The notes under the pieces: model-generated | Seen by the model: the letters and a program-made list of their open reading frames with translations, nothing else | What the model was told of the DNA's origin: nothing | Database searches by the model: none | Program-made: the position numbers and the translations under genes | Shown: positions 4,559-32,000 of the stretch, piece after piece | Layout of the letters: the number at the start of each line of letters is the position of its first letter | Numbering within the stretch: the stretch's first letter is position 1 | Source of the DNA: Candidatus Methylomirabilis oxygeniifera | GTDB lineage: Bacteria > Methylomirabilota > Methylomirabilia > Methylomirabilales > Methylomirabilaceae | Length of the DNA: 32,000 nt | Direction: 5' to 3' | Assembly: GCA_000091165.1 (NCBI GenBank) | Contig: FP565575.1 | Coordinates: 1,440,001-1,472,000, forward strand

Positions 4559-4572
4559 GTGTAACGGGCGAC

Positions 4573-10707: not shown

Positions 10708-10828
10708 GCATACGATGCAACGGACAGGGAAAACGCTTCCTGCCTGAACCAACGGGTTGTCAACCCTCTTGCCCGTAGGACAGCGAAGACGAACGCTCGC
10801 TCGACGTGATACTGCTGGCGGAGCCACA

Positions 10829-11164
10829 ATGAAGGCGATGCGAACACGGAATGTGGGCAAGTTGATCGAACAGATGGTTCGGGTAATCATCCGGAAGTTT
10901 AACCCGGAGCGCATCATCTTATTCGGATCTCATGCTCGTGGCGAGGCCGGACCGGATAGCGACGTAGATCTCCTCATCGTGATGCCAGTAGAAGGTTCGA
11001 GAAGGCAAAAGGCAGTCGAGATCGGGGTGGCGCTGCACGATATACGCCTACCCAAAGACATCATCGTGACGACTCCTGAGGACTTCGAGTGGCGCAAGGA
11101 GATCGTAGGCACGATCGAACGGCCTGCGGTACGGGAAGGAAGAGTCCTCTATGCCCGCATATGA
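10829..11164 (+). CDS. Nucleotidyltransferase-domain protein (MNT-type antitoxin of an MNT/HEPN pair)
   Basis: ILFGSHARGEAGPDSDVDLLIV is the GS-X9-DxD nucleotidyltransferase motif. ATG at 10829 is preferred over the track start 10757. It overlaps the downstream HEPN gene. Confidence 0.8.
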   Translation: MKAMRTRNVGKLIEQMVRVIIRKFNPERIILFGSHARGEAGPDSDVDLLIVMPVEGSRRQKAVEIGVALHDIRLPKDIIVTTPEDFEWRKEIVGTIERPAVREGRVLYARI

Positions 11165-11576
11165 ACGGGCCCTCGCCGTCGTTCGCGGGTGGGTCGAGAA
11201 GGCAGAGAGCGACCTGGCAAATGCGACTCTCGCCCTGGGAGCAGGCAAGACGTGCCCGGCCGATACGGTCGCTTTCCACGCCCAGCAGTGTGCGGAGAAG
11301 TACCTGAAGGCCTTTCTGGCCTTCAGGGGACTGGACTTTCCGAGGACCCACGATATCGGGGAATTGGTCGCATTGATAGGTACAGGTGTGCGCGTTCAGT
11401 TGTCAGTCCAGGAACAACGCCAACTGACGTCGTATGGGACGGTGACGCGGTATCCGGGAGACTACGAGCCGATTACGGTTACAGAGGCTCGCCGGGCCGT
11501 CGCGCTGGCGCGTCGCGTCCGCGCTGCGGTCAGGAAGCTCCCGCCGAAAGACACGCTTCCGAAGGAGAGGAAGTAG
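11151..11576 (+). CDS. HEPN-domain protein (toxin partner of MNT)
   Basis: All-helical, AFHAQQCAEKYLKAFLAFRGLDFPRTHDIGELV with the R-x4-H HEPN motif. There is a 14-nt overlap with the MNT gene. Confidence 0.8.
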   Translation: MPAYERALAVVRGWVEKAESDLANATLALGAGKTCPADTVAFHAQQCAEKYLKAFLAFRGLDFPRTHDIGELVALIGTGVRVQLSVQEQRQLTSYGTVTRYPGDYEPITVTEARRAVALARRVRAAVRKLPPKDTLPKERK

Positions 11577-13892: not shown

Positions 13893-14336
13893 TTATGGGG
13901 TTCGGGCGATTTCGACGTGGAGAATGTTCAGGTCTTCAGCTTCGGCTGCTCGAAGTAAACGCTCGTCGGCCGCGGCAAACGTGATGTCTTCACCGAGTGC
14001 GTTCTTGAGGCTGATGGCGGAGGCCAGATGAACGGCATCGAAACCTTTGAGGGGATGCTGCCGGATCAGATCGCGTGCAAGAAATAGGATGTCGTCGTGC
14101 AGTTCTACTCGGATGTAGGCCTGCCAATCGGCTTCAAATTGCCGGTAGGCGAGGCCATACTGGACATCGGAGAGGTGGCCTTCGCGGAGTTTACGGGTAA
14201 GGCCGGCATAGACTTCGGCATACGCAATCTTGGCCGTTGCGATGGGCCCCTCTCGTTTCACGAGGCTCTGCACCAGCGGCGAACCCTTTTCGGCGACAAA
14301 CCGCTTGATAAGGGCGCTGGTGTCCAGGTAGTTCAT
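13893..14336 (-). CDS. vapC: VapC-like PIN-domain toxin
   Basis: MNYLDTSALIKRFVAEKGS... with ...FDAVHLASAI and ...FAAADERLLRAAEAE, the PIN acidic residues. There is a 4-nt overlap with the upstream antitoxin. Confidence 0.85.
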   Translation of the reverse strand: MNYLDTSALIKRFVAEKGSPLVQSLVKREGPIATAKIAYAEVYAGLTRKLREGHLSDVQYGLAYRQFEADWQAYIRVELHDDILFLARDLIRQHPLKGFDAVHLASAISLKNALGEDITFAAADERLLRAAEAEDLNILHVEIARTP

Positions 14337-17791: not shown

Positions 17792-18106
17792 GTGGCCACA
17801 CGTCGTCGCTCGTCACCTGAGATACAGCAGGCCGTAGCCCTGAAGTACGAGGCCGGCGAGAACGGGGCACCCGAGGTGGTCGCCTCGGGCCGCGGGCGTA
17901 TCGCTGAGCAGATCATTGCGCTCGCCAAGGCGCACGGCATCTACGTCAAGCAGGATCCTGAGTTGGTCGAGGTCCTCTCCAGACTCGACATCGGCGACGC
18001 GATCCCGCCGGAACTGTACGCGGTCGTCGCCGAGATCCTGGCCTTTGTCTACCGGGTCAACGCGAAGCGAGACCTGCACAATAGCCTACCCCCCTCATCC
18101 CGCTGA
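17792..18106 (+). CDS. FlhB C-terminal-domain-like protein (EscU/YscU/HrcU family switch-domain paralog, YlqH-like)
   Basis: QQAVALKYEAGENGAPEVVASGRGRIAEQIIALAKAHGIYVKQDPELVEVLSRLDIGDAIPPELYAVVAEILAFVYRV aligns with the FlhB-CC subdomain. It has no transmembrane region and no NPTH autocleavage motif. GTG start follows GGAGGAGG. Confidence 0.8.
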   Translation: MATRRRSSPEIQQAVALKYEAGENGAPEVVASGRGRIAEQIIALAKAHGIYVKQDPELVEVLSRLDIGDAIPPELYAVVAEILAFVYRVNAKRDLHNSLPPSSR

Positions 18107-18135: not shown

Positions 18136-18858
18136 TCAGATAATCTCACCGGCTCGTACAATGATGTGAGCCACCTCCGCCAGCTTGATGTTGCGATGTT
18201 GACTCTCTTGCTGCAATTTTTGCATGGCCTCCGGCTCGGAGAGCTTTAGTCGCTCCACGAGGATTCTTTTCGCCTTCTCGATCAGCTTTCGCTCCCCCAA
18301 AACTGTCTCTAACTTTTTCGTCCGTTGCTCCAGGAGATGTACCTTTGTCTTGAGTCGTGGAATGGTTTCTTCTGAGACGTGCTTCGTATTGCCTTTTGGG
18401 GTGGAGCGGAGATGGGTAGCGGAGAGAGGGGCAGCGTGTTGTTCGACACACGTCTCGGTCTCGGTGGCGTGTTTCACGAATATCTTGAAATCACAATGCT
18501 GCTGCCCCGCAGCGATTCGCCGCTTGAAGATAACTTGTCCGTAGCCAAAGAGATCAACCGCAATCCGCCCGAGACTTTCGCACCAGAGGTGACAGAAACT
18601 CTCCTGTTCCGCAACTCCTTCGCCGGCAAGGCAGTTGGTGCTGGTGAAGCGGATATGATCGCTCGCAAGCCGGTAGCGTAGATCCCAGGTCAACTGGTTC
18701 GCCAGCCAGACGACGGCCTCAGCGTATTCGGCTGGAGTAAAGACCCCTCGGTGCTTACTTCGCGCCTCCCCGGTTAAGCCGCTCAAGCTGCAGGCGACGG
18801 TGCGCAGGACTCGCTGTGTGGTTGGTAGATCGTTCTGCTTACCCAGCATCGCGGCCAA
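18136..18858 (-). CDS. Receiver-less ANTAR-domain protein, paralog 1 (Cys-containing V4R-like N-terminal domain + coiled coil + ANTAR)
   Basis: C-terminal ANTAR: GERKLIEKAKRILVERLKLSEPEAMQKLQQESQHRNIKLAEVAHIIV. N-terminal: DHIRFTSTNCLAGEG...FCHLWCESLGRIAVDLFGYGQVIF...HCDFKIFV. Homology to paralog 2 continues about 25 codons upstream of the first canonical start, so the start is uncertain. Confidence 0.8.
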   Translation of the reverse strand: MAAMLGKQNDLPTTQRVLRTVACSLSGLTGEARSKHRGVFTPAEYAEAVVWLANQLTWDLRYRLASDHIRFTSTNCLAGEGVAEQESFCHLWCESLGRIAVDLFGYGQVIFKRRIAAGQQHCDFKIFVKHATETETCVEQHAAPLSATHLRSTPKGNTKHVSEETIPRLKTKVHLLEQRTKKLETVLGERKLIEKAKRILVERLKLSEPEAMQKLQQESQHRNIKLAEVAHIIVRAGEII

Positions 18859-19594
18859 GTATCCGACAAGGTCTCGTATGATGAAACTGCGAGCTAACTC
18901 AGCGCGAGCGTCAAGCGCGGAACCGGTCGGTCTTTAGCGCTTGAACAACAGACTACTCTGTCTTAGCATGGGTCGTTCCCTTGACTTGATCTGAGTCTGG
19001 CGACCTGACGAGGGTTCGCGACATCGCGGTTGGCCGATTGACGTGTGCCTGCACGTCACCCGGCACGAATCGGGTTAAGGGGAACGCGACCATAGCCGAT
19101 AGCAAAACCGTAGGAACACTCAGGTGTTGTGGCGGTGATCGGTGTTCGGTCACTGCCAGGCGGAACGAATGACCGCCCTGCGGAGAGGCTTCGCCGACCG
19201 GATAGCCGGTGAACGAAGCGAGACCATAGATCGTCGTGCGCAAGACGCAGGACCGCACTGTCGCGGAGTCTGCTGAGCGCGGAGTCTGAATTCCTCGAGC
19301 GCTGATGGGGGCGCCATGGGGAGGGTGATGATGCCCGCACATGCCGACGTATGCCTCCGAACTCAATCACGTAGCAGTCCGGTTCCTTCTCCCCCTGAAG
19401 TCCAGCTCTTCAACGCGCGAGCATCACGCCATCCTCGTCTGGTCCGTGAGGCCATGGACCGCTTCGTCTCCGGCTTGCCACGAAGAGGCCGCTCCTCGCC
19501 AAAACACCACGAGAGATGGCCCGTCTACGGGCTGAAGTACCTCATAGGCTGCCCCACGCGACTTAACACTTTAACACCGGAGGGAGGAAGGACA

Positions 19595-21316
19595 ATGACC
19601 ATGCAATGGTTCAAGAATCTCAAGACGATGACCAAGTTGATGCTGGGATTCGCCGTAGTGGGCGTGATCGCGGGCGGAGTGGGCTACCTCGGCATCAGTA
19701 ACATGGGGAGTATCAATGCTAATGTAGGGGACGTGTACCAACACCAGCTCCTCCCCATCAAGATCATGGCCGAGGCCCGGGGGCAAACCCACCGGATGCG
19801 GGGTTTCGTGATCCAGCACATGCTGGAGCGCGACAAAGGCGCAATGGACAAGATTGCTGCCACTATCCAGGAATCCCAAGGACAGGTGGAAGAGCGGATT
19901 GGCCGCCTCGAGAAGATGGGTTTGACCCTTGAGGAGCGGGAGGCGCTGGGAACGTTCAAGGCGGCTTTCGCTGCATATAACAAGACGCGAGACGACAAGG
20001 TTCTGGCCTTCAGCAGTCAGGGCAAGAAGGAGGAGGCCTACGCCGCGGCCAAGACAGAGGGTGCGGAGCGATACCAGGCGGTCGTGGCCCGCATCAATGC
20101 CCTCATCGACCTCAAGGATAAAGCCGCCAAAGGTCGCTACGACGAAAGCCAGGCCACCTATAGCCGCTCCCGGACCATGATGATTGGGTTCGCTGTGGGG
20201 GGTCTGTTGACGGGCCTCGTATTCGGGTATTTTATTGCGATCCTGATCACCGGTCCGTTGAGCCAAACCGTGGCGGTCCTCAAGGACATCGCGGAGGGCG
20301 AGGGCGACTTGACGAAGCGACTGACAGTCCACAGTCGCGATGAGGCCGGCGAACTGGCTCGCTGGTTCAACACGTTCATGGACAAACTCCACGAGATCAT
20401 CGGGCAGGTGCGCATGGCCGCGGCGCAAAACGCCTCCACCTCACAACAACTCGCCGCCGGCAGCGAAGAACTGTCCAGTGGTACCCAGGAGCAAGCTGCC
20501 TCAATCGAGGAGACGGCGGCCTCCCTGGAGCAAATGACCTCCACTGTGAAGCAGAATGCGGACAACGCCCGCGAGGCGAACCAGATGGCGGTGTCGGCCC
20601 GATCGACGGCCGAGCAAGGCGGAGCCGTAGTCCAGACGGCTGTCACCTCGATGGAGGCGATCCGTGAGTCCTCCAAGCAGATCGCCGCGATCATCACGAC
20701 GATCGATGAAATCGCCTTTCAAACGAACCTTCTGGCGCTCAACGCCGCGGTCGAAGCCGCCAGAGCGGGGGAGCAGGGTCGGGGCTTTGCGGTGGTCGCC
20801 AGTGAGGTTCGGGCGCTTGCTCAGCGCTCGGCGGTCGCCTCCAAGGAGATCAAGACGCTGATCACTGACTCGGTAACCAAGGTGGAGGAGGGGGCGCAAC
20901 TGGTCAATCAGTCCGGGAAGACCCTGACCGAGATCATGGCCGGTGTGAAGAAGGTCGCCGATCTCATCGCCGAGATCTCCGCCGCCTCTCAGGAGCAGGC
21001 TCAAGGGATCGAGCAGATCAACAAAGCGATAACCCAGATGGACTCGGTCACTCAGCAAAATGCCGGCCAGACTGAGGAGTTCAGTGCCACAGCTCAATCC
21101 ATGGCAGCGCAGGCGGAGGAGCTCTCGGCGCTGGTGGCGAAGTTCAAGCTGGCGCGAGAGGCTGCGATCAGCCGTCAGCCGTCAGCGATCAGCTCTGAAT
21201 CGTCTCGGAAGGTGGTCCCCCTAAAAGGGAAGGCGCGTGGTAAATTCGCGGCGCCTAAGGCAGTGGCGGCGGCCACCGGGACCGATACGGCGTTTGGAAC
21301 ATTCGAGGAATTCTAG
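19595..21316 (+). CDS. Methyl-accepting chemotaxis protein (4-helix-bundle sensor, HAMP, MA signalling domain)
   Basis: ATG 19595 follows [41 protein letters not shown] (TM1), a second TM, a HAMP domain, and the highly conserved hairpin [43 protein letters not shown]. The track ORF start at 19316 adds about 90 aa of non-protein-like sequence. Confidence 0.9.
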
Positions 21317-21445
21317 TCCCCCCTTTCTCTTGTCCTTATCCGATGGGGAAGGGAGGAGCATGCAAAGAGGGGTCACGCATATGAGCGAATCAACGATCGA
21401 TCAGATGAGCTACACCAACGATACGCACCAGATGGGGGCGAGGGC

Positions 21446-24400
21446 GTGATAAAGAGACTGATGGAGGGTTCCATATTCAGGCGGTTTACCTTCCTATCCG
21501 TTCTGATCGCCTTCGTGGTTCTGATCCCTTTAGTTATTTTTGGCTTCTCGGCGATTCAGGTCGCATCGGACCAACTCCTGCAACATGAGTTGGACGAATC
21601 AAAACAGGAGGTACTAACCAATGCGGATCAACTGAAGCGCGTCTTCGACATGGCTCAGGCCGACCTCACTATGCTGCGTGAACTGACGATTCGTAAGCTG
21701 AGGCGAGTTCGAGCCGCCGGCAATGAGGCCGAGATGGCGCGCTGGTATGATGCAATAGGGCAAGCCTTCCTGACTGTTGCAGATAGCCGACGGATCTACA
21801 ACCAAATCCGCTACCTCAATGAGTACGGCCGCGAGGTGATCCGGGTGGACTATGACGGCATTCATCCTCCGCAGCTCATCCCGCCTGCGCGCTTGCAGGA
21901 TAAGCGGCAGCGCGACTACTTCTCGGAAACCATGAAACTCGCGCCGGGCCAAGTCTACGTGTCTCGGCTCGATCTCAACCAGGAGCACGGTCAGATCGAG
22001 GTCCCGTACCGTCCCGTTATCCGCTACGCCATGCCCCTCTTCGATGACGCGGGCCACCGAAGCGGGATCGTCATCGTCAACCTCCAGATGGAGCCATTGC
22101 TCGATACCCTGTACCAGAAAGGAAAAGCCGCTCAGAGGGAAGTGCGAGTCGTCGATCAGGAGGGATTTTACCTCCTACACTCTAATCCGAATAAACAGTG
22201 GGGCGGCCCACATGAACTGAACACGGGGGAACGGATCCAGCGGGACCTTCCTGACCTTGCCGGCCGGCTCCTCTCTCAACAGGCTGTCGCAAGAGTCATG
22301 GCGGAGCAGGTCGTAGCCGCCCAGCCACTCCTGCTCAGCACGAATAACGCAGGCCCGTTCATTGTGGTCGTGGAACTGATGCCCACCCATGTTGCCCTGG
22401 CACCGATTACGGATCTTCACCTCTATTTGCTGATTCTACTCGTGGGTACGAGTATCCTCGCGATAGGGTGCGCCGCATTGTTAGGGGACAAACTCACTCG
22501 GCCCATCGTCGCCTTGCAGCAGGCGGCTCATCAGATCCGACATGGTAACCTGAATACCGCAGTAGAGACTCGTGGGCCGCGTGAGATCGCGGCGCTGAGT
22601 GAGGCGTTCAATGCCATGGCGGGGGGGCTGGCCCAGGCTCAGGTTCGAATCGACCGACACCTGGCCAGATTACACGCCATCAATCAGATCTGGACGGCTG
22701 CCGGTAACCCTCTTTCGCTCCACGAGGTCATCGATCACGCTCTAGATGCGACGTTACTCTGTCTGGGCGTCGAAGCGGCTGAGATCTTTCTATTGAACGA
22801 AGAACGGACCGAGGTCGTCCTGGTCGGACACCGGGGGGCGGCCCAGGAGGCCTTCCGAGAGACTACCCATTTCAAGTTGCAGGAAGGATTCCCCGGACTG
22901 GCAACCTTCTCGGCCGAGGTCGTACTGACAACCGATCTGCCGAACGATCCACGCTTTCTCCGGAAGCAGGTCATCGAAGCCGGCTTTAAGACCTTCGCGG
23001 CGATCCCTCTGAAGGTAACCGGACAGGTGATCGGCGCCATGAACGTGGCGACCCGCACCAGTTGCACCATCATCAAAGACGACCTCCCGATTTTGACCGC
23101 CATCGGGTCCACGATCGGGATGGTCGTGGCCAACGCACGCCTTTTTGAAGCGCAGCGTGACGGCGCACAACAGCTTGCCGAGAAAGTCGAGGAGTTGGAC
23201 GGCAAGATCGATGAGTTGGAGCGGATGCAGGCTCGTCTCATCGAAGCTGAGCGGCTCCGCGCCATGGGACAGATGGCCGCCGGGGTCGCTCACGACTTCA
23301 ATAACGCGCTGATGGCGGTTCTTGGACAGGCGCAACTCATACGGCTCTTCCTTGAACGAGGGCATATAGCGGCCGTCATGCAGAACGTGGCGGAGTATGT
23401 GGAGGTGCTGGAGCGCCTCGCATGGCAGGAGCAGGCCATACTCGATGCCGCGAACATTGTGCGAAAGATCCGTGAGGCCACCCGATCGCACGGCGAGGAG
23501 CCCTTTGCCTTGGTGTCGCTGAACGAGATCGTCGAGCAGGTCCTCGAGACCACCCGGCCCCGGTGGAAGGATCAGGCTGAGGCAAAGGGACTCTCGGTCA
23601 CGATAGCGCTGCAGTTGGGCGATGTACCGCCGGTCCTCGGGAATGCAGCGGAGTTGCGGGAAGCGCTCATTAACGTCCTCTTCAACGCGCTCGACGCCAT
23701 GCCGCATGGCGGCACCATCACGATCGCCACGAGACGAGCACCGCGTACCGAAACCGGTGAGACGCTCTCGACTACCCACACCCCCCGATCGCTGTTCCAG
23801 GAACCGCCGGCCGGACGGACGTGGGTCGTACTCTCTGTTACCGACACCGGCATCGGGATGTCTCAGGACGTCAAGGCGCGGCTCTTTGAGCCGTTCTTTA
23901 CCACAAAAGGGAGCCATGGAACCGGCCTCGGGCTCAATATGGTCCAAGGCATCGTCCATCGCCACGAGGGCGAGATTCACATTACGAGCGCAGAGGGATG
24001 GGGGACCAGCATCAGCATCCATCTGCCGGCGGCGCAGGAGGATCGACCGGAACCATCCACTCCCGCCCCGCCTCCGCCGTTGCCAGGCCGGCTGCGTCTG
24101 CTCGTGATCGACGACGAACCGCTGCTTGGCGAGACCCTGGTCGACCTGTTGGGACTCCTCGGGCATGAGGCGGTCGCAGTAACCAGCGGCGAGGCGGGCA
24201 TTGCACGCCTGCAGGCCGAGCGCTTCGATCTGGTGATGACCGACATCGGGATGGCGGGAATGTCGGGGTGGGACGTCGCTCGGGCGGTCAAGGCCGATTG
24301 GTCCCAACTTCCCGTGATCCTGGTCAGCGGCTGGGCCGGTATGATGGAGCGCGACCAGATCGAGGGAGCGGGGATTGACGCAGTCCTGGCCAAGCCGTAC

Positions 24401-24487
24401 ACGATAACGCAACTCGAGCACGCCCTCAGCCGAGTTGTCGCCTCGACTCGGCGAGACGCGGGGAGCGACCCATTGGGTACGGCGTGA
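21446..24487 (+). CDS. Hybrid sensor histidine kinase 1 (TM - Cache/PDC-like extracytoplasmic domain - TM - HAMP - GAF - HisKA - HATPase_c - REC)
   Basis: H-box MAAGVAHDFNNALMAVLGQAQL. N, G1 and G2 boxes: LINVLFNALDAMPHGG, DTGIGM, GTGLGL. REC: RLLVIDDEP...DLVMTDIGMAGMSGWDV...AKP. The GAF segment is homologous to the three small GAF proteins. The sensor segment (IRYLNEYGREVIRVDYDG...YFSETMKL...VSRLDLNQEHGQIEVPYRPVIRYAMPLFD) is paralogous to kinase 2. Confidence 0.9.
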   Translation: MIKRLMEGSIFRRFTFLSVLIAFVVLIPLVIFGFSAIQVASDQLLQHELDESKQEVLTNADQLKRVFDMAQADLTMLRELTIRKLRRVRAAGNEAEMARWYDAIGQAFLTVADSRRIYNQIRYLNEYGREVIRVDYDGIHPPQLIPPARLQDKRQRDYFSETMKLAPGQVYVSRLDLNQEHGQIEVPYRPVIRYAMPLFDDAGHRSGIVIVNLQMEPLLDTLYQKGKAAQREVRVVDQEGFYLLHSNPNKQWGGPHELNTGERIQRDLPDLAGRLLSQQAVARVMAEQVVAAQPLLLSTNNAGPFIVVVELMPTHVALAPITDLHLYLLILLVGTSILAIGCAALLGDKLTRPIVALQQAAHQIRHGNLNTAVETRGPREIAALSEAFNAMAGGLAQAQVRIDRHLARLHAINQIWTAAGNPLSLHEVIDHALDATLLCLGVEAAEIFLLNEERTEVVLVGHRGAAQEAFRETTHFKLQEGFPGLATFSAEVVLTTDLPNDPRFLRKQVIEAGFKTFAAIPLKVTGQVIGAMNVATRTSCTIIKDDLPILTAIGSTIGMVVANARLFEAQRDGAQQLAEKVEELDGKIDELERMQARLIEAERLRAMGQMAAGVAHDFNNALMAVLGQAQLIRLFLERGHIAAVMQNVAEYVEVLERLAWQEQAILDAANIVRKIREATRSHGEEPFALVSLNEIVEQVLETTRPRWKDQAEAKGLSVTIALQLGDVPPVLGNAAELREALINVLFNALDAMPHGGTITIATRRAPRTETGETLSTTHTPRSLFQEPPAGRTWVVLSVTDTGIGMSQDVKARLFEPFFTTKGSHGTGLGLNMVQGIVHRHEGEIHITSAEGWGTSISIHLPAAQEDRPEPSTPAPPPPLPGRLRLLVIDDEPLLGETLVDLLGLLGHEAVAVTSGEAGIARLQAERFDLVMTDIGMAGMSGWDVARAVKADWSQLPVILVSGWAGMMERDQIEGAGIDAVLAKPYTITQLEHALSRVVASTRRDAGSDPLGTA

Positions 24488-24536
24488 CAACCTGTTCGCA
24501 GCGTGTCCACATTGGAACCGCTTCAGCCCGTACGCC

Positions 24537-25403
24537 TCACGGCTGCGCAGCCTCACGGAGGCGCCGGATCGTCCGAGTCGCGTCCGCTATCAGCCGTTCC
24601 TGCAGGCTGAGGCAACCGGATAAGTGGTCTTTCGAGAATGTGCCCCTCGCAATCGTAAGCTGCATCAGTTGTGTCTGCCCCAGAACACCCATCAACGCAT
24701 TATTTAAGTCGTGCGCAACGCCGGCCGCCAACTCGCCCATCGCCCGAAGTCGCTCGGCGGCCACCAACTGATTCTGGCTGCGCCGCAGCTCTTCCAGACT
24801 CGCCTCCAGTCGCTTGGTCGTAAGCCGGAGATCCTCGTAGATGCGGGCATTGATCACCGCCATGCCCACCGCAGCCCCGATGGCGGTGACGAGTTTCGTG
24901 TCGTCCTCCGTAAAGACGCGCATCCGCCGCGTGGCGATATCGAGCACACCGATGACCTCCCCTTTAGCCCTGAGAGGGAAGGCCGCGAAGGTCTTAAAGC
25001 CGGCCGCGACCACCTTGTACCGGAGAAAGCGCGGGTCCGCCGCCAGGTCTGGGATCACGACAACCTCCCCGGTCTGCGCCACGCGCCCGGGAATCCCTTC
25101 CCCCAGCGCGAACCGGGTGCGTTCGCCGAAGGCCTCCGGTTCCAGGCCGAGCTGTCTGGTGAGGCAGACCGCTTGTGTCGCCGTATCGAGAAGCCAGATC
25201 TCTCCGGCCTCCATACCCATAACCTTTAAGGTGGCATCGAGGGTCTGATCGAGGACATCCGGAAGCGCGAGCACACCACCAATGATCCTCCCTACCGTTC
25301 CAATGGCCTCCAGATGTCTGTTGCGGCAGGCGTATTGCTTCACCTGCTCCTCTAACACGGCGTAGATTCGAGCCTGCTCGATCGCCACCCCCTCGTCCAT
25401 CAT
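24537..25403 (-). CDS. Stand-alone GAF + DHp (HisKA) protein lacking a catalytic ATPase domain
   Basis: 288 aa. GAF core: GEGIPGRVAQTGEVVVIPDLAADPRFLRYKVVAAGFKTFAAFPLRAKGEVIGVLDIA. A coiled coil follows, then an intact H-box, AAERLRAMGELAAGVAHDLNNALMGVLGQTQLMQL. The protein ends about 45 aa later with no N, G1 or G2 boxes. Confidence 0.8.
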   Translation of the reverse strand: MMDEGVAIEQARIYAVLEEQVKQYACRNRHLEAIGTVGRIIGGVLALPDVLDQTLDATLKVMGMEAGEIWLLDTATQAVCLTRQLGLEPEAFGERTRFALGEGIPGRVAQTGEVVVIPDLAADPRFLRYKVVAAGFKTFAAFPLRAKGEVIGVLDIATRRMRVFTEDDTKLVTAIGAAVGMAVINARIYEDLRLTTKRLEASLEELRRSQNQLVAAERLRAMGELAAGVAHDLNNALMGVLGQTQLMQLTIARGTFSKDHLSGCLSLQERLIADATRTIRRLREAAQP

Positions 25404-25466
25404 TGCTCACCTCCCTCCGGTCATACCAATGAAGCCTCCCCGCGGCAGGCCGCGGGCTATCGTCTT

Positions 25467-28379
25467 CTATTCCGGCTCGTCATTCCGTGCATGACAAGCC
25501 TGCCCCGTACTTGATACGGGGGAATCCAGTCGGGTCCCACCGCTCCGCCGGATGATGGCGACAGCCTCGGCGAGGGCGTCCTGAAGCTGTGCCATCGTGT
25601 ATGGTTTGGCCAGCACGAGGTCCACCCCCGTCCCCTCGAGCCGGTCAGACTCCAGCGCGTCGCCCCACCCTGTGACCAGGATGACGGGACAGGTGGGCCA
25701 GCGAGCCTTGACCGCCTTGGCGACCTCCCACCCCGACATCTCCGCCATCCCAAGGTCGGTAAGAACCAGGTCGAAGCGTTCAGTCGTAAGGCGCGTGAGC
25801 CCTTCCTTGCCGCTGGTTGCGACGGTCGCCTCGTGGCCCAGGAGGCGTAGGGACACAGAGAGGGTCTCGGCAAGGAGCGGATCGTCGTCGATGACCAGCA
25901 GTGTAAGCGGGCCGGTGAGGGGGGAGCGGCGCGGCGCGTCCGGCAGCGATACCATTTCAGTGCCCCGCTCTCCGGCAGCCTCTACCTCGGCGACCGGCAC
26001 GCGTACGGTGATGGTCGTCCCCTGTCCTTCTACGCTCCGGACGCTGATCTCGCCGCCGTGGCGCTCGATAATACCGTAAACCATGCTGAGGCCGAGCCCG
26101 GTTCCGCGTACCCCCTTCGTGGTGAAGAACGGCTCGAAGAGACGAGTCTGCACGACCTGCGACATCCCGGTTCCGGTGTCGGCTACGGCAAGCTCGACCC
26201 AACCCTGTCCTTCGCGTTCCGCCTCTCGTACTCCAAATCCCCCCGCGCCCCCCTTTTGTAAAGGGGGGGTGGGGGGATTTTGCACCTCGGACTCCGTACT
26301 GCGCGCATGGATCGTGCTGACCGTAATCGTTCCGCCATTCGGCATGGCGTCGAGCGCGTTGAAAAGTAGATTGGTGAGCGCCTCGCGCAGCTCGGCGGCG
26401 TTGCCCTGGACCGGCGGGGTATCGGCCAGCGCTGTCTGCACAGCAATGTGTACCCCTGCCGCCTCGGCCTGGTCCTTCCAGCGGGGTCGGGTAATCGCGA
26501 GGACCTGCTCGACGATCCGGTTGAGAGCCACCGGCCCGAACGCCTCCGCGCCCCTTGGGCGGGTCGCTTCCCGGATCTTCCGGATCGTCTCGGCCGCGTC
26601 GAGCGCCACCTGCTCCTGTCGCGAAAGGCGCTCCAGGAGTGTTGTGTAGACCTCTACGCTCCGCAGGTCCGCCGCAACCGACCCCTGTTCGAGAGAGAGC
26701 CGCATGAGCTGCGTCTGCCCAAGAACCCCCATCAGTGCATTATTGAAATCGTGAGCTACTCCGGCGGCCATGGTTCCCATGGTAGCCAGCTTCTCCGATT
26801 CGATGAGTTGGGCTTCGCGCTTTTTTCTTTCGGTGACATCCCGGATGATGGCGGTAAAGAATTCCGATCCATGCTGTTCAGCCACCGATAGGGAGATCTC
26901 CAGCGGAAACTCCTCGCCGCTTTTCCGAAGGCCGCTAAATTCGAGACTGCGCCCGATCACGCCGGCGTCACGGATCCGGAGGTAGCGATCGAAGCCCTGG
27001 CGGCAATCCTCTTGATAGCGATCCGGCATCAGCGAGCTGACGAACTGTCCAAGCATTTCTTGCTCGCAATAGCCGAAGATCTTCTCTGCTGCGCGATTCA
27101 CGAGGGTGATTCGACCATGGCGGTCCGCGATTACGACACCGTCCTGGGCCGTCTCGATCAGACTCCGAAACCTCTGCTCCGATTCCCTGGTCTCCTGAAG
27201 CGAGGTTACCACATTGTCCGCCATGTTATTGAACGCGTCGCCAAGCGCGGCGATCTCGGCGGACCCACCGACTTTAACCCTGGCGTCCAGATGACCCTGC
27301 TGGATCCGATGGGACGCCTGCTCCAAGGCGACGATGGGACGCGCGAATCTTCGGCCTATGACGACAGCCCCTACGACCGCAACGCTCCCCACCCCGGCCA
27401 GCAGGATCAGCAGATACCAGCGAAGGGCCGCGACAGGCGCCAGGACCATGCGTGTGGGCATTAGTTCGATAATGACTAGAGAGGGATCCGAAGCGCTTGG
27501 GCCGATGGCGAACGACTGAGCGGTAATAATCTGTTCCCCCAGGATGGCCGCGACGGGGTCCCCGGCGAGGAGCCGTCCGGCAAGGTCCGGGAAGTCCTGT
27601 TGCAGGCGCCGGCCTGTGTTCAGGTCGCGGGGACTGCCCCACCGCTTGGCCGGATCGGGGTGTAACAGGTAGAACCCCTCCCGGTCGACAACATACACGA
27701 CCTTCCCGACAGCTTTGCCCTCTTGATGCAGCGCCTCGAGAAGCGGGCCTATCAGCAGGTTGATGATCACGATCCCGCGCCGGTTGCCCTCGTCGTCAAA
27801 GAGGGGCGTCGCGTAGCGGATGACGGGGCGGTACGGGACTTCGATCCGTCCATGTTCCTGGTTGAATTCCGGCTGGGAGGTGAACAGTTGCCCCGGCCCG
27901 AGCTTCATCGTCTCCGAGAAATAGTATCGCTGCCGTTGATTCTGAAGTCGGTCGCGGGGGATGATTCGTGGCGGATTCACACCGTCGTTGTCGACCCGAA
28001 CCAACTCCTGTCCGTTTTCGTCCAGGTAGCGGATCTGGTTGTATACCGTCCGATTTGCCGAGAAGGAGAGGAAGACCTGCTCCAGCGCCTTTCGCCATTG
28101 CTCGATCCCGGTCAGGTCGAGAAGAGTTCGGGCTTGGATCAACTCCCGCATCGCAGCCACGTGACTAATGATGGGCACATCGCCTTGAGCCGACTCCACA
28201 CGATGTCGGATGTGGTGGGCATCGCTCAGCACATCCTCCTTCAATTCCCCTATGGTTTTGTGCACAAGGTGGTCCGAGACAACCCGAACAACAGCGAGAC
28301 CGAACACCGCCAGGGGCGCCAGACCAACCGCGGTCAACAACACGATCAGAACGGTAGTGAAGGTGAACCGCCTAAGCAT
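25467..28379 (-). CDS. Hybrid sensor histidine kinase 2 (TM - Cache/PDC-like domain - TM - HAMP - PAS - HisKA - HATPase_c - REC)
   Basis: 970 aa. PAS: FRSLIETAQDGVVIADRHGRITLVNRAAEKIFGY...IIRDVTERK. H-box: MAAGVAHDFNNALMGVLGQTQLMRL. HATPase: LLFNALDAMPNGG, DTGTGM, GTGLGL. REC: LLVIDDDP...DLVLTDLGMAEMSGWEV...AKP. Confidence 0.9.
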   Translation of the reverse strand: MLRRFTFTTVLIVLLTAVGLAPLAVFGLAVVRVVSDHLVHKTIGELKEDVLSDAHHIRHRVESAQGDVPIISHVAAMRELIQARTLLDLTGIEQWRKALEQVFLSFSANRTVYNQIRYLDENGQELVRVDNDGVNPPRIIPRDRLQNQRQRYYFSETMKLGPGQLFTSQPEFNQEHGRIEVPYRPVIRYATPLFDDEGNRRGIVIINLLIGPLLEALHQEGKAVGKVVYVVDREGFYLLHPDPAKRWGSPRDLNTGRRLQQDFPDLAGRLLAGDPVAAILGEQIITAQSFAIGPSASDPSLVIIELMPTRMVLAPVAALRWYLLILLAGVGSVAVVGAVVIGRRFARPIVALEQASHRIQQGHLDARVKVGGSAEIAALGDAFNNMADNVVTSLQETRESEQRFRSLIETAQDGVVIADRHGRITLVNRAAEKIFGYCEQEMLGQFVSSLMPDRYQEDCRQGFDRYLRIRDAGVIGRSLEFSGLRKSGEEFPLEISLSVAEQHGSEFFTAIIRDVTERKKREAQLIESEKLATMGTMAAGVAHDFNNALMGVLGQTQLMRLSLEQGSVAADLRSVEVYTTLLERLSRQEQVALDAAETIRKIREATRPRGAEAFGPVALNRIVEQVLAITRPRWKDQAEAAGVHIAVQTALADTPPVQGNAAELREALTNLLFNALDAMPNGGTITVSTIHARSTESEVQNPPTPPLQKGGAGGFGVREAEREGQGWVELAVADTGTGMSQVVQTRLFEPFFTTKGVRGTGLGLSMVYGIIERHGGEISVRSVEGQGTTITVRVPVAEVEAAGERGTEMVSLPDAPRRSPLTGPLTLLVIDDDPLLAETLSVSLRLLGHEATVATSGKEGLTRLTTERFDLVLTDLGMAEMSGWEVAKAVKARWPTCPVILVTGWGDALESDRLEGTGVDLVLAKPYTMAQLQDALAEAVAIIRRSGGTRLDSPVSSTGQACHARNDEPE
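26235..26280. repeat. G/C-homopolymer palindromic (REP-like) element embedded in-frame in the kinase 2 ATPase domain
   Basis: AAATCCCCCC-GCG-CCCCCCTTTTGTAAAGGGGGGG-T-GGGGGGATTT. Minus-strand translation is QNPPTPPLQKGGAGGF, a peptide type typical of translated intergenic palindromic repeats. It lies in a variable loop between the N box and G1 box. Confidence 0.5.
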
Positions 28380-28452
28380 AGGACCTCATCGTGTCGCGCT
28401 CAACCCGAACAGCGCCGTGAATCTCCCACGTCAGACTCTATTCCAGCGCCCG

Positions 28453-28962
28453 TCACAGCATCTCCCCGGCCTGCACAATGATCTGCGCAACCGCTGCCAG
28501 CCTGAGGTTGCGCGCCTGGCTCTCCCGCTGCAGTTTTCGCATCGCCTCGGCCTCAGATAGTCGCAGCCGCTCCATAAGGATCCCTTTCGCCTTCTCGACC
28601 AGCTTTCGCTCCTCGAGCGCCGTCTCCAGCTCCCGCGTCCGCTGTTCCAAATACCGGACCTTCGCCTGGAGCTGGCGCACCGTCGCCTCGGAGAAGCGCT
28701 CCGGTTGGCCGCCGGGCTCGGGGGCGGGGCCGCCCTGCGCCGGCCGGTCGACGGCGACGGCCCCCGTCTCGGCCTCCGCGGTGGGCTGCAGGTACAGCCG
28801 GACGTCGCAGCCCTCGCGCGCCGCCGTGTCCCGCGGCGCGACTACCACCTTGCCGTAGCCGAAGCGCTCCGCGGCTATCCGCCGGAGGCTCTCCCACCAC
28901 AGGTGGCAGAGGGGCGCCGTCTGTCCGCCCTCGTCGCGGCATATCGTACAGGTGAAGCGGAT
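28453..28962. repeat. Near-identical duplication, copy A (3-prime 510 nt of ANTAR paralog 2)
   Basis: By eye, 508/510 identical to 31491-32000 at offset 3038. Mismatches are at 28457 and 28495. Identity starts exactly at the stop codon and runs to the window edge. Confidence 0.9.
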
Positions 28963-29226
28963 ATGATCGGGCGCCACCCGGTACTGCATCGCGCCGCCCA
29001 GTTGCTGCGCCAGTCGGACGACGGCCTTGGCGTAGGTGTCCGGGGTGAGGGGTGACGGCGCGTCCTCGCACGGCGCCTCCGCCATACGCAGGAGGCGGGC
29101 GGCGGCGCGCAGGGCCTGCTGCCGTCCCTGCGAGTTGCCCCACTCGTCCAGCAGGCCCGCCGTGTGCCCGATGAAGTCGCGCACAAAACCGCTTGGGGCC
29201 GTCTCGCTGTGCCTGGGCTTGCTCAT
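28453..29226 (-). CDS. Receiver-less ANTAR-domain protein, paralog 2 (V4R-like N-terminal domain + coiled coil + ANTAR)
   Basis: ANTAR: EERKLVEKAKGILMERLRLSEAEAMRKLQRESQARNLRLAAVAQIIV. N-terminal: DHIRFTCTICRDEGGQTAPLCHLWWESLRRIAAERFGYGKVVV...GCDVRLYL. ATG 29226 is preceded by GGAAGGAGG. The track start 29259 abuts a terminator U-tract and is unlikely. It is followed 73 nt later by kinase 2. Confidence 0.8.
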   Translation of the reverse strand: MSKPRHSETAPSGFVRDFIGHTAGLLDEWGNSQGRQQALRAAARLLRMAEAPCEDAPSPLTPDTYAKAVVRLAQQLGGAMQYRVAPDHIRFTCTICRDEGGQTAPLCHLWWESLRRIAAERFGYGKVVVAPRDTAAREGCDVRLYLQPTAEAETGAVAVDRPAQGGPAPEPGGQPERFSEATVRQLQAKVRYLEQRTRELETALEERKLVEKAKGILMERLRLSEAEAMRKLQRESQARNLRLAAVAQIIVQAGEML

Positions 29227-29259
29227 CCGATTGCTCCGCCTCCTTCCGTCTGCGCCCAT

Positions 29260-29295
29260 AAAAAAAGCCTTTCATCGATATGCCGATGAAAGGCT
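29260..29295 (-). terminator. Intrinsic terminator-like hairpin (element A), immediately 5-prime of ANTAR paralog 2
   Basis: Minus strand: AGCCUUUCAUCG-GCAUAU-CGAUGAAAGGCU followed by UUUUUUU. The stem is a perfect 12 bp with a hexaloop. Confidence 0.6.
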
Positions 29296-29563
29296 CCCTC
29301 GCCTGTTCCCGCCCGGCCCTCGTCAGCCGGATGGGAGAATCCGCGCGTCCTGACGGCCATGCCGCCCTCAGGACGTCATCAACTTACTGACCGATCAACC
29401 GCGCGATCGGTAAACTGTTCCGCCTGGCAACAACCGTGCGTGGCGCAGCGACGGACCATCCTAGATCTATATACCGACAGATTCGGGTCTCCTCTTGAGG
29501 CCCATTCCTCCGGTCAACGAATCATCACGACGTCGGAGAAGCCGTAGGCGGCTCCGATGAGAG

Positions 29564-30256
29564 TCAGTCTGCCGTCCGTGTTCGCTCCATGGCGGTCAGT
29601 TGAGCCTGGGTCTGCTCCAGTTCGCTCAGCTTTGTCTCCAGTTGTCGAGTCGCGACCTCCAATTGCTGTGTCGCGACCCTGAGTCGCTCGTACAGGTGGG
29701 CGTTGGTCACCGCCATCCCCACCACCGCCCCGATAGCGCTCAAGAGTTGCACATCGTCCTCTGTGAGAACGCGCGTCCGACGCTCGGCGACATTGAGGCA
29801 CCCGGTAACCTCCCCCTTGCCCAGCAGGGGGAAGGCCACGAAGGTCTTAAAGCCGGCCGCGACCACGCTGTGCCGGAGAAAACGAGGCTCTTCCGCCAGA
29901 TCGGGAATGACCACAGATTCCCCGGTTTCCACCACCAGCCCGGGAATCCCTTCACCAGGACCAAACCGCTGACGCTCCCAGAAGGCCTCCGAATGCAGAC
30001 CACGATGTCTGGCCAGGCGCACCTCGCCCACAGCCGGATCGAGGAGCCAGATCTCCCCGGCCTCCATCTCTGTGACCGTCAAGGTGGCATCGAGGACCCG
30101 ATCGAGGACCTCGGTGAGGGCCAACGAGCTGCTGGCGGCTTGCCCAACCCTGCTGAGGGCCTCGAGTTGGTTCGTGCGTCGTCTGTATTGCTCGACCTGC
30201 GCCTGCAACGCGGCGTCGGATCGGGCTTGCTCCGCGGAGAACGTCTCTTCCGGCAT
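29564..30256 (-). CDS. Stand-alone GAF protein with C-terminal coiled coil, truncated just before the H-box
   Basis: 230 aa. GEGIPGLVVETGESVVIPDLAEEPRFLRHSVVAAGFKTFVAFPLLGKGEVTGCLNVA. It ends ...QAQLTAMERTRTAD, where paralogs read LVAAERLRAMGELAAGVAHD. Confidence 0.75.
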   Translation of the reverse strand: MPEETFSAEQARSDAALQAQVEQYRRRTNQLEALSRVGQAASSSLALTEVLDRVLDATLTVTEMEAGEIWLLDPAVGEVRLARHRGLHSEAFWERQRFGPGEGIPGLVVETGESVVIPDLAEEPRFLRHSVVAAGFKTFVAFPLLGKGEVTGCLNVAERRTRVLTEDDVQLLSAIGAVVGMAVTNAHLYERLRVATQQLEVATRQLETKLSELEQTQAQLTAMERTRTAD

Positions 30257-30465
30257 AACTATGCTCCACTCTCTCGACGGCGGACACCGTGGTCACAGAT
30301 CCGCCTACGTGTCAGTTCCCCTATCCTGGTTGCACAATCGGTCACTCCGACCGGTATCCCCATGGATGATCCGCCCGCGTACCGACGAACATGCAAAATC
30401 AACGCCACACTGCTTCTCTCCGATCCTCATGCTTGAGAGGCCCGACAGGTAACGGCTCGTGTGTA

Positions 30466-30510
30466 TCCGGAAACACAAAAGCCTTTCATCGAAGATCCGA
30501 TGAAAGGCTT
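30466..30510 (-). terminator. Intrinsic terminator-like hairpin (element B), same stem as element A
   Basis: Minus strand: AAGCCUUUCAUCG-GAUCUU-CGAUGAAAGGCUU followed by UUGUGUUUCC. The stem is 13 bp with a hexaloop. The 12-bp core stem is identical to 29266-29295. Confidence 0.55.
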
Positions 30511-30714
30511 CATCGCCCTCTCTCACGACACCGCCATCAGCACCGTTGGCAAGAGATCCACGCCCTGAGAGTGGTATCACCCTCAGGCCTCGATTGCCTG
30601 AGAGCCGTCAACTACGAGTGTGCACAACTCGACCGCTTTGTCACCAACCTCGCGTCGAGTTGAACGACAGTATAGATGACATCGTGCGCGACTGTCAAGT
30701 TCCCGTCGCGCCGC

Positions 30715-31461
30715 CTAATTCACATTATAAGAGCTGAGCATCTGCAGCGCCCTTAACGCGTTGTGGCAGTCGCGGGCGATGCCGGTCTCCGGCTCGTCCG
30801 TCGCCCGCAGTCGCGCTGTGGCGACTAACTGATTCTGGGTGCACTGCACCTGTTCAATCTTTGCCGTAAGCTGCTCGATAGAACGCCTGAGTTCCTCGTA
30901 CAGGCAGGCGTCCGCCGCAACCATTCCCACGGCTGCTCCGATCGTGATCAGGAGGCGTAGATCTGCCTCTGTGAACGAGCGCGCCCGACACGCGGCGATA
31001 TCGAGGGAACCGATGACCTCCCCTTTGGCCCGCAGCGGGACGGCCACGAAGGTCTTGAAGCCGGCCGTGACCACGCTGCGCCGGAGAAAGCGAGGCTCTT
31101 CCGCCAGATCGGTAATGACCACGGGCTCCCCGGTCTCCACCACCAGCCCGGGAATCCCTTCACCGACGGCAAACCGCGTGCGTTCCAGGAAGGCCTCCTC
31201 GATAAGGCCGTAATGCCGCTCGACGCACACCTCTCCTCGGATCCTATCGAGCAGACAGATCTCCCCGGCCTCCATCTCCAGAATCGTCACGGTCACGTCG
31301 AGGATCCGCTCGAGAATTTGATGGATCGGCAGCGAACCGGTGATGATCTGGCCGACAATGCGAAGAGCCTCCAGGTGTCTGGTGTGGTAGAGGTGCTGTC
31401 TTACCATGGTCTCTACGTCAGCATACAACTTAGTCCCCTTCACCGTCGCCCCCTCCTCCAT
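30715..31461 (-). CDS. Stand-alone GAF protein with a degenerate, His-less DHp remnant
   Basis: GEGIPGLVVETGEPVVITDLAEEPRFLRRSVVTAGFKTFVAVPLRAKGEVIGSLDIA. The C-terminus LVATARLRATDEPETGIARDCHNALRAL aligns to the H-box with His replaced by Arg. ATG 31461 follows GGAAGGAGG, and its N-terminus MEEGATV.. matches the paralog N-termini MMDEGVA.. and MPEETFS... Confidence 0.75.
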   Translation of the reverse strand: MEEGATVKGTKLYADVETMVRQHLYHTRHLEALRIVGQIITGSLPIHQILERILDVTVTILEMEAGEICLLDRIRGEVCVERHYGLIEEAFLERTRFAVGEGIPGLVVETGEPVVITDLAEEPRFLRRSVVTAGFKTFVAVPLRAKGEVIGSLDIAACRARSFTEADLRLLITIGAAVGMVAADACLYEELRRSIEQLTAKIEQVQCTQNQLVATARLRATDEPETGIARDCHNALRALQMLSSYNVN

Positions 31462-31490
31462 CACGGCCCGCCTCCTTCCGGGGTATCCAT

Positions 31491-32000
31491 TCACGGCATC
31501 TCCCCGGCCTGCACAATGATCTGCGCAACCGCCGCCAGCCTGAGGTTGCGCGCCTGGCTCTCCCGCTGCAGTTTTCGCATCGCCTCGGCCTCAGATAGTC
31601 GCAGCCGCTCCATAAGGATCCCTTTCGCCTTCTCGACCAGCTTTCGCTCCTCGAGCGCCGTCTCCAGCTCCCGCGTCCGCTGTTCCAAATACCGGACCTT
31701 CGCCTGGAGCTGGCGCACCGTCGCCTCGGAGAAGCGCTCCGGTTGGCCGCCGGGCTCGGGGGCGGGGCCGCCCTGCGCCGGCCGGTCGACGGCGACGGCC
31801 CCCGTCTCGGCCTCCGCGGTGGGCTGCAGGTACAGCCGGACGTCGCAGCCCTCGCGCGCCGCCGTGTCCCGCGGCGCGACTACCACCTTGCCGTAGCCGA
31901 AGCGCTCCGCGGCTATCCGCCGGAGGCTCTCCCACCACAGGTGGCAGAGGGGCGCCGTCTGTCCGCCCTCGTCGCGGCATATCGTACAGGTGAAGCGGAT
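31491..32000 (-). CDS. Receiver-less ANTAR-domain protein, paralog 3 (N-terminus beyond the window edge)
   Basis: Its translation is identical to paralog 2 except for the last residue (GEMP versus GEML). The 31491..31886 track ORF is the in-window part, and the frame stays open to position 32000. Confidence 0.8.
   Translation of the reverse strand: MRFTCTICRDEGGQTAPLCHLWWESLRRIAAERFGYGKVVVAPRDTAAREGCDVRLYLQPTAEAETGAVAVDRPAQGGPAPEPGGQPERFSEATVRQLQAKVRYLEQRTRELETALEERKLVEKAKGILMERLRLSEAEAMRKLQRESQARNLRLAAVAQIIVQAGEMP
31491..32000. repeat. Near-identical duplication, copy B
   Basis: See 28453-28962. Direct orientation, 3038 nt apart. Confidence 0.9.

Follow-up and report, generated by a model that had tools for sequence, protein, structure and literature searches.

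A candidate NasR-like ANTAR antitermination regulon of signalling genes in Methylomirabilota

NasR of Klebsiella oxytoca is an ANTAR protein without a receiver domain, in which an N-terminal signal-binding domain is joined through a connecting helix to the C-terminal ANTAR domain (PMC3369931, PMC7496416). It acts as a dimer on a leader RNA with two hexaloops, whose P2 hairpin competes with an intrinsic terminator (PMC3369931, PMC7496416). Here we describe a cluster of ANTAR, GAF, kinase and chemotaxis genes in a window of 32,000 nt, the whole stretch of DNA analysed, from Candidatus Methylomirabilis oxygeniifera (Ca. Methylomirabilis oxyfera); coordinates and strands are those of the window. 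The ANTAR paralogues of the cluster share with NasR the order of the domains and the lack of a receiver (REC), and we infer a similar action on RNA. The sensor differs: NasR has an all-helical NIT domain, whereas the domain here is probably MetOD1, predicted to be alpha/beta, with a Cys cluster. The RNA loops read GANGRN instead of the ANNGNN of the NasR type, and the genes behind them are signalling genes and the regulator's own gene instead of a nitrate-assimilation operon. The cluster is probably, with some reservation, a lineage-specific, NasR-like one-component ANTAR antitermination regulon of signalling genes in Methylomirabilota.

Two other ANTAR systems are also close. In the EutV/EutW system of Enterococcus faecalis, as here, several dual-hairpin-terminator copies lie in one locus, with the regulator genes inside the regulated unit (PMC3369931). 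The ANTAR dimer of EutV recognises two similar loops (PMC3369931), and two similar loops are present here too. EutV is a REC-ANTAR protein phosphorylated by EutW, whereas the ANTAR proteins here lack REC and the adjacent kinases carry their own. AmiR, with AmiC, in Pseudomonas aeruginosa and NasT, with NasS, are controlled without phosphorylation by an adjacent sequestering sensor (PMC12591593), and an ANTAR-GAF pair in the cluster could, by analogy, work like AmiR/AmiC sequestration. AmiC has a periplasmic-binding-protein fold in place of the GAF domain found here, and AmiR has a pseudo-receiver.

On the sensor side, the closest described proteins are MopR, PoxR and DmpR with their V4R domains and the MetOD1 proteins of methanogens, which belong to the same superfamily and show the same three-Cys cluster and modular use (PMC5847659). 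Their arrangement is different: MopR, PoxR and DmpR have sigma-54 AAA+ output and archaeal MetOD1 sits C-terminal to REC, whereas the output here is ANTAR. ANTAR output is not among the MetOD1/V4R architectures listed in PMC5847659 or PMC12591593.

Receiver-less ANTAR proteins and their N-terminal domain

The original prediction listed three ANTAR paralogues without a receiver, three short GAF proteins, two hybrid kinases and a methyl-accepting chemotaxis protein (MCP), and all of these open reading frames (ORFs) were recovered at the predicted coordinates. ANTAR1 (18136-18858, minus strand) and ANTAR2 (28453-29226, minus strand) consist of a MetOD1-like domain, a predicted coiled coil and an ANTAR domain. 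The third, ANTAR3 (31491-32000, minus strand), is represented by its C-terminal 169 residues only, with its start beyond the window. Pfam ANTAR (PF03861) matched all three (E-values from 1e-16 to 1e-19; 60.1, 66.4 and 68.5 bits, where the cutoff is 27.3) over model positions 2-54 of 54, and the same model matched 22 of 22 full-length family members. None of the three matched REC. A degenerate receiver was considered as the N-terminal domain and rejected, because of this lack of a REC match and because a profile of the N-terminal domain retrieved MetOD1 proteins, not REC. For the same reasons, the NCBI name "ANTAR domain-containing response regulator" for P0012 is a misnomer.

The longer, 268-amino-acid form of ANTAR2, which begins at 29259, is 100% identical to CBE68779.1, annotated as "protein of unknown function". 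The ATG of CBE68779 at 29259 abuts the U-tract of a terminator, and the start at 29226 fits the homologues better. A word-indexed search of 5.8 billion proteins returned 20 full-length ANTAR2 homologues, and the named ones were all from Methylomirabilis. A literature search on ANTAR in Methylomirabilis found no relevant paper. For these genes, so far without a known function in the model organism of nitrite-dependent methane oxidation, Ca. Methylomirabilis oxyfera, the regulon described here would offer a testable one. In an AlphaFold2 (AF2) monomer model, residues 175-256 form one continuous helix with a predicted local distance difference test score mostly of 81-93, which fits a coiled coil.

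Related contigs, among them L001, L002, L004, L010, L011, L013, L014 and L016, were used for comparison; identity is 94% for L001, 61% for L002 and 46% for L013. In their gene neighbourhoods the linkage of the ANTAR genes is kept down to 46% identity. ANTAR2 and ANTAR3 are 99% identical at the DNA level. In L001, the synonymous divergence (dS) between the two copies is 0.03, compared with 0.085 between ANTAR2 and its orthologue in the window. Since the L001 copies are closer to each other than ANTAR2 is to that orthologue, the comparison indicates homogenisation of ANTAR2 and ANTAR3 by gene conversion. ANTAR1 is more distant (48% identity to ANTAR2). Relative to L001 it has lost the ancestral ATG; the frame at 18859-18930 (minus strand) is still open and homologous to the N-terminus in L001. 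ANTAR1 probably starts at the TTG at 18858, about 20 residues shorter, with most of the first MetOD1 helix gone.

The N-terminal part had been described as a Cys-containing, sensor-like domain. Such a domain is present, and it is not an unknown sensor: from profile matches and Cys positions, we assign it to Pfam MetOD1 (PF18546), a V4R/H-NOX-like domain of the V4R/HNOB/ATC-hydrolase superfamily. MetOD1 was defined in response regulators of methanogens by Galperin and colleagues and is related to H-NOX, V4R and ATC-hydrolase domains through a shared Cys cluster (PMC5847659). The Pfam model was matched by 12 of the 22 full-length ANTAR family members, and close relatives reached 43-45 bits. The ANTAR family conserves three cysteines, numbered C96, C107 and C140 in ANTAR2. 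ANTAR1, ANTAR2 and ANTAR3 have all of them, and in the wider set their counterparts C100, C113 and C146 are invariant or nearly so.

An exhaustive search of 1.84 billion representatives with the N-terminal domain alone (E up to 1e-3) gave 259 clusters, and only seven of the best 150 also had ANTAR. Among the 100 nearest relatives without ANTAR, 93 had MetOD1, with HATPase/HisKA (23), Sigma54_activat (12), HTH_8 (6), GerE (5) and REC (3) as partner domains. MetOD1 was N-terminal in every multidomain example inspected. Fusion to kinases, sigma-54 activators and helix-turn-helix outputs makes it, as judged from these architectures, a modular input domain. A 2025 review gives REC, GAF, PAS, NIT, AmiR_N, SpoIIE, STAS and PilJ as partner domains of ANTAR, and MetOD1 is not among them (PMC12591593). 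MetOD1 would be a new sensor partner for the ANTAR antiterminator family, and the link would give a first functional handle on a domain for which sequence analysis in methanogens has been the sole description.

The AF2 model of the N-terminal domain (predicted template-modelling score 0.71) has three helices followed by strand-strand-helix-strand-strand. With the full-length model, Foldseek matches were dominated by designed helical proteins, and a PDB sequence search with the N-terminal profile gave nothing meaningful. An N-terminal protein-pattern scan of a genome collection returned no relatives; the M. oxyfera genome is seemingly absent or masked there.

The leader RNA

Terminator-containing leaders do precede units of the cluster, as the original prediction held. 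Two near-identical terminator hairpins (minus strand, 29294-29267 and 30508-30481) lie in two copies of a leader RNA and recur in related loci. The leader is made up, in order, of P0, a long P1, a short linker, a P2 of 4-5 bp, and an intrinsic terminator with a U-tract. P1 is closed by an invariant U·G pair, and the 3′ strand of P2 (GCCUU) is at the same time the base of the 5′ strand of the terminator. Leader copy 1 (29259-29373, minus strand; 110 bits with the covariance model) has P0, the P1 loop GACGAG and the P2 hairpin AGGC-GAGGGA-GCCU in a dual hairpin at 29331-29291, followed by the terminator stem at 29294-29267 and the U-tract. Leader copy 2 (30473-30588, minus strand; 103.6 bits) also has P0 and has the P1 loop GAUGGC and the P2 hairpin AGGGC-GAUGAA-GCCUU, with the dual hairpin at 30546-30503 and the terminator at 30511-30478. 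Their fold z-scores were -3.3 and -4.2, respectively. A sigma-70-type promoter-like site (TTGACA-18-TATACT, 11 of 12 matches) stands in front of copy 2 at 30669-30698 (minus strand), and a similar sequence (TTGACG-17-TATAGT) precedes the leader of the L002 ANTAR gene.

A covariance model trained on 13 copies found 22 copies on 10 contigs, with scores of 50-120 bits. Seven of the 22, at 60-90 bits, are on three contigs outside the training set. Changes on both sides of a pair were seen at 8 of 11 pairs in P1 and 10 of 10 in P0, and the observed covariation was reached by none of 500 shuffles. When the register was shifted, pairing fell from 83% to 32-52%. The terminator was 99.7% paired and had compensatory changes of its own. 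Alignment columns 109-113 take part in P2 as well as in the terminator; of these, column 112 covaries with its partner in each. We also considered whether the L2 loop pairs with the 5′ strand of the terminator, but loop position 3 and A116 show no covariation, and this pairing was rejected.

Each of the two loops has the pattern G-A-N-G-R-N; A2 occurs in 21-22 of the 22 copies and G4 in all 22 for each loop. The P1 loop (L1) is a hexaloop in 19 copies and measures 7 nt in the other three, and the P2 loop (L2) has 6 nt in all. G occupies position 1 in 19 of 22 L1 loops (A in two) and in 22 of 22 L2 loops. Eleven pairs make up P1 and 4-5 make up P2, and the linker between them measures 2-4 nt by the alignment, or 4-8 nt by a stricter stem definition. 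A published ANTAR target has two hexaloop hairpins with stems of at least 3 bp, a linker of 2-25 nt, A1, G4, and a P2 that competes with the terminator (PMC3369931, PMC8164766). All of these features are found in the leader except A1. The loops would represent a variant recognition code, G-A-N-G compared with the canonical A-N-N-G, missed by the motif searches behind the approximately 1,600 known ANTAR targets and by Rfam.

Enforcing P2 gave a fold that was less stable than the terminator fold by 9-12 kcal/mol (11.7 kcal/mol for copy 1). Because of this preference for the terminator, the default state of the leader is predicted to be off.

A naive structural scan of the window found exactly three dual GA.G.. 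hairpins, compared with 0.16 in shuffled sequences. The third lies at 19299-19336 (plus strand; P1 GCGCU-GAUGGG-GGCGC, P2 GGGU-GAUGAU-GCCC), within a degenerate leader copy (19254-19356, plus strand; 15.7 bits) upstream of an MCP gene and a hybrid kinase gene, HK2. When two large collections were scanned for the pattern, the element turned up on only four contigs, all of Methylomirabilota type. Pattern matches in contigs of Bacillus, Bacteroidia and Firmicutes were rejected as chance hairpins; they covered the terminator part only, at 31 bits or less. The leader family is conserved, ANTAR-target-like, uncatalogued and confined so far to Methylomirabilota. The original prediction of an undescribed RNA-level system agrees with this, as Rfam gave no family for the leader at E up to 1 and no paper in the literature searched links ANTAR with V4R.

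The same leader might also be read as a cis-acting attenuator that responds to a small-molecule riboswitch ligand or to another RNA-binding protein, with the adjacency of ANTAR reflecting only a shared locus. The absence of canonical A1 from the loops would fit this, as would the lack of a Rfam match and the conservation of P0 and of a sequence-invariant terminator stem, which the canonical ANTAR model does not require. However, conservation is concentrated in two near-identical loops, which points to recognition by a protein dimer and not to a ligand pocket. The hexaloops, a linker within 2-25 nt, G4 and the overlap between P2 and terminator fit what is known of ANTAR targets (PMC8164766, PMC3369931), and the leader follows the ANTAR subtype even where the sensor is PAS-PAS, as described below. 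We consider such an attenuator improbable.

Genes behind the leaders

The leader would be a target of the ANTAR proteins, and its distribution over genes bears on this. All 22 copies point at the start of a co-oriented gene. In the window, copy 2 precedes GAF2 (29564-30256, minus strand) and copy 1 precedes a unit of ANTAR2, a Cache kinase (HK; 25467-28379, minus strand) and, as its last gene, GAF-DHp (24537-25403, minus strand), where DHp denotes the dimerisation and histidine-phosphotransfer domain. The degenerate copy precedes the MCP gene (19596-21316, plus strand; ORF from 19316) and HK2 (21446-24487, plus strand). The counterparts of GAF2 and the ANTAR2 unit have leaders in L001, as do the orthologue of ANTAR3 (259 amino acids; leader at 50 bits) and, divergently, an MCP gene; a weak match upstream of HK2 in L001 resembles the MCP-HK2 copy of the window. 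In L002, leaders precede an ANTAR gene, the Cache kinase and a divergent gene, and the HK orthologue stands directly behind a leader of 119.9 bits. Leaders were found before an ANTAR gene followed by a GAF-HK-REC kinase and before a divergent MCP gene in L013, and before an ANTAR gene, a GAF-HK-REC kinase and a divergent gene in L014. In L001 and L013 the leader before the MCP gene is canonical. Leaders also precede a MetOD1-ANTAR gene in L011 and a GAF-HisKA-HATPase-REC kinase in L004.

The original prediction placed ANTAR at the output end of the kinases and GAF modules. The evidence argues against this direction: the same leader fronts ANTAR, GAF, hybrid kinase and MCP genes, which would make them regulated targets. 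Since leaders precede their genes, the kinases and GAF proteins are most simply read as targets and not as inputs.

A leader-adjacent ANTAR gene of this subtype is present on every contig that extends far enough. In the metagenome contig L010, leaders precede a hybrid kinase with Cache-GAF-GAF input and, in the divergent direction, a GAF gene with a PAS-PAS-ANTAR gene (10-1398, minus strand) behind it. The coiled-coil and ANTAR module of this PAS-PAS protein is about 70% identical to that of ANTAR2. For comparison, the fourth ANTAR gene of the window (6225-6812), confirmed as REC-ANTAR, is only 44% identical to ANTAR2 in this module. From these identities, L010 appears to have a swapped sensor domain on a conserved RNA-binding module that uses the same leader, so that the leader travels with the ANTAR subtype despite the swap. 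This tie between the leader and one ANTAR subtype is the strongest indirect evidence for binding by these proteins.

A full-length GAF hybrid kinase directly follows MetOD1-ANTAR in other genomes (L013 and L014), and the conserved core can be drawn on this basis as [leader]-ANTAR-GAF(kinase); upstream of it lie another leader and gene in divergent orientation. The spacers in the window are 73 nt between ANTAR2 and HK, 63 nt between HK and GAF-DHp, and 29 nt between ANTAR3 and GAF3 (30715-31461, minus strand), as had been predicted, and ribosome-binding sites (GAGG/GGAGG) are visible in the first two.

Both kinases carry a C-terminal REC domain, as the original prediction stated. By Pfam, HK has the architecture dCache-HAMP-PAS-HisKA-HATPase-REC and HK2 has dCache-HAMP-GAF-HisKA-HATPase-REC. 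HK2 is 84% identical to its L002 orthologue, with a ratio of non-synonymous to synonymous substitution rates (dN/dS) of 0.30. HK has 970 amino acids in the window compared with 925-926 in L001 and L002, and its tail after REC (25467-25600) differs. No histidine-phosphotransfer (Hpt) protein or DNA-binding response regulator is encoded within 16-32 kb, also as predicted.

The three short GAF proteins had been presented as stand-alone GAF and GAF-DHp modules. GAF was found in all three, and HisKA only in GAF-DHp, below threshold (22.5 compared with 26.9 bits). Alignments did not bear out a separate class. Over its full length, GAF-DHp shares 55% identity with residues 1-285 of the 605-amino-acid GAF-HisKA-HATPase-REC kinase of L004, and its identity to the GAF-DHp region within the HK2 chain is 44%. 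It has both DHp helices and the H-box AHDLNNAL with the phospho-acceptor His and stops at the boundary between DHp and the catalytic (CA) domain; it lacks HATPase_c and REC and does not qualify as a histidine kinase. In GAF3, a GAF domain and a signalling helix lead into DHp helix 1, which is degenerate and cut short by the end of the protein; the H-box His is changed to Arg in the window and L001 and kept in L002. GAF2 has GAF and a signalling helix and stops just before the H-box. The three thus form a truncation series. Their frames are all intact, and dN/dS in orthologue comparisons was 0.27 for GAF-DHp, 0.22-0.25 for GAF2 and 0.33 for GAF3, close to 0.26-0.30 for the kinases. A pseudogene reading of these genes was ruled out by these values (0.22-0.33). 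Intact frames and kinase-like dN/dS indicate that the short GAF genes are maintained and not debris, and from the alignments they are truncated derivatives of a GAF-HisKA-HATPase-REC kinase. They would provide a natural series for the study of how kinase fragments are reused.

Should the whole cluster be seen as evolutionary debris of duplication and truncation, with the hairpins as REP-like or MITE-like repeats? The unit of GAF and hairpin is in tandem with a period of about 1210 nt, ANTAR2 and ANTAR3 are nearly identical, the GAF proteins represent successive truncations of a kinase, and ANTAR1 has lost its start codon, all of which debris would explain. However, the short genes of the cluster are all intact and under purifying selection (dN/dS 0.22-0.35) like the kinases, and the short GAF genes are kept in genomes with only 61% ANTAR identity. 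The RNA copies are all oriented to the start of the downstream gene, their stems have compensatory changes, and the pattern scans of the two collections did not find the element as a dispersed repeat. Debris is therefore a very improbable explanation.

A more credible alternative, although one we consider unlikely, is that signals run, as in the original prediction, from the hybrid kinases or GAF modules to the ANTAR proteins as the last step, which would be controlled by protein-protein contact instead of a fused receiver. In one version, the C-terminal REC of a kinase docks on MetOD1 in trans, giving a "split" REC-ANTAR regulator; in another, the GAF protein sequesters the ANTAR dimer as AmiC does AmiR, an established precedent for ANTAR proteins (PMC12591593). 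A GAF-HisKA-HATPase-REC gene or a truncated GAF derivative follows MetOD1-ANTAR in every context examined, and the 29-nt spacing from ANTAR to GAF recurs in four genomes (window, L001, L002 and L016). REC and MetOD1 are fused in one protein in methanogens, a Rosetta-stone hint (PMC5847659). Between the window and L002, moreover, ANTAR (61%) and GAF3 (53%) have diverged faster than the kinases (84%). A physical link between a kinase or GAF protein and an ANTAR protein may exist. Against this, GAF3, the partner of ANTAR3, has lost DHp, CA and REC and is nevertheless maintained, so that phosphotransfer cannot be essential to the ANTAR3-GAF3 pair. Many kinases and activators have MetOD1 at their N-terminus as input, and the ANTAR-type leaders of the kinase and GAF genes suffice to explain the linkage.

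A specific form of this idea, to which we give rather less credence, is a split phosphorelay-to-RNA pathway. The receiver would have moved from the ANTAR protein onto the kinase, and a phosphorylated REC or a truncated GAF protein would dock on MetOD1 and switch RNA binding; the archaeal REC-MetOD1 fusions would then serve as a Rosetta stone for the contact between REC and MetOD1. If true, this would be a previously unknown wiring of Hpt-less hybrid kinases to RNA-level output. It would serve an organism with a metabolism built on nitric oxide and internally made O2, which an H-NOX-like Cys-cluster domain might plausibly sense as well.

Proposed mechanism and flanking genes

In the regulon that we favour, the paralogues would be receiver-less one-component regulators with MetOD1 as direct input, a dimerising coiled coil and an ANTAR domain that binds RNA, and the conserved leader would be their target. 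By default the terminator would form and transcription would stop. MetOD1 would sense a signal, which at the Cys cluster could be a metal, redox state or a small-molecule ligand, and free the ANTAR dimer, a step for which the autoinhibition of NasR is a precedent (PMC7496416). The active dimer would clamp both GANGRN loops and stabilise P1 and P2, and the stabilised P2 would unzip the base of the terminator and allow read-through into ANTAR, GAF, kinase and MCP genes. ANTAR genes have a leader of their own, which would imply positive autoregulation. The system would determine how strongly a block of genes for sensory and chemotaxis proteins, beside flagellar genes, is expressed, and transcription termination may act as the gate for the chemotaxis and sensor-kinase genes of the organism.

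Several observations weigh against this regulon model. With the Pfam MetOD1 model (cutoff 23.8 bits), ANTAR1 scored 23.6 bits and ANTAR2 and ANTAR3 gave no match. Foldseek with the N-terminal model returned weak matches to H-NOX, soluble guanylate cyclase and Bet3/TRAPPC3 (E about 1e-2, TM 0.35-0.47), which are consistent with the V4R/H-NOX superfamily and not decisive. Position 1 of the loops is G and not A, and A1 matters in EutV and NasR targets by mutagenesis (PMC3369931). The terminator stem (GCCUUUCAUCG / CGAUGAAAGGC) is near-invariant across genomes with 46-61% protein identity, while its loop varies freely. The 22-copy alignment (A5) was fitted to the model, which favours the structure being counted; a MAFFT alignment of 13 copies gave the same picture of covariation. 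ANTAR1 has no covariance-model match upstream on its own strand, and with its ancestral ATG lost as well it may be drifting. The MCP-HK2 leader copy has no recognisable terminator and may act otherwise than by intrinsic termination. The invariant adjacency of ANTAR to a GAF kinase or GAF gene suggests a link at the protein level that the regulon model does not need.

The 3′ strand of the terminator holds a third copy of the GAUGAA loop motif.

The MCP has the domains 4HB_MCP-HAMP-MCPsignal by Pfam. Its most likely start is the ATG at 19596, after the ribosome-binding site GGAGGGAGG. The ORF is over-extended at 19316-19595, and 4HB_MCP begins only at ORF residue 101. A start at 19596 leaves a 5′ untranslated region of about 260 nt after the degenerate dual hairpin.

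The left flank of the cluster is flagellar, with FliK and an ORF for the C-terminal domain of FlhB. This ORF of 104 amino acids, which has the C-terminal domain only, adjoins the ANTAR cluster in three genomes (window 17792-18106, plus strand; L001 19513-19827; L014 5260-5574) and lies beside FliK in the window and L001.

Further away, the NasT-like REC-ANTAR gene (6225-6812) follows genes for an OmpL-like porin and the AmtB ammonium transporter, all within 3182-6812 on the plus strand. This row looks like a conventional nitrogen-related ANTAR unit. No canonical A..G.. dual hairpin was found in the window, and thus no target could be assigned to this gene. An ORF at 9012-9947 (plus strand) encodes staphylococcal-nuclease and lamin-tail domains. 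At 10757-11576 (plus strand), a HEPN-domain protein follows a small overlapping ORF, probably as an MNT/HEPN toxin-antitoxin pair, and a PIN-domain protein is encoded nearby (13893-14336, minus strand).

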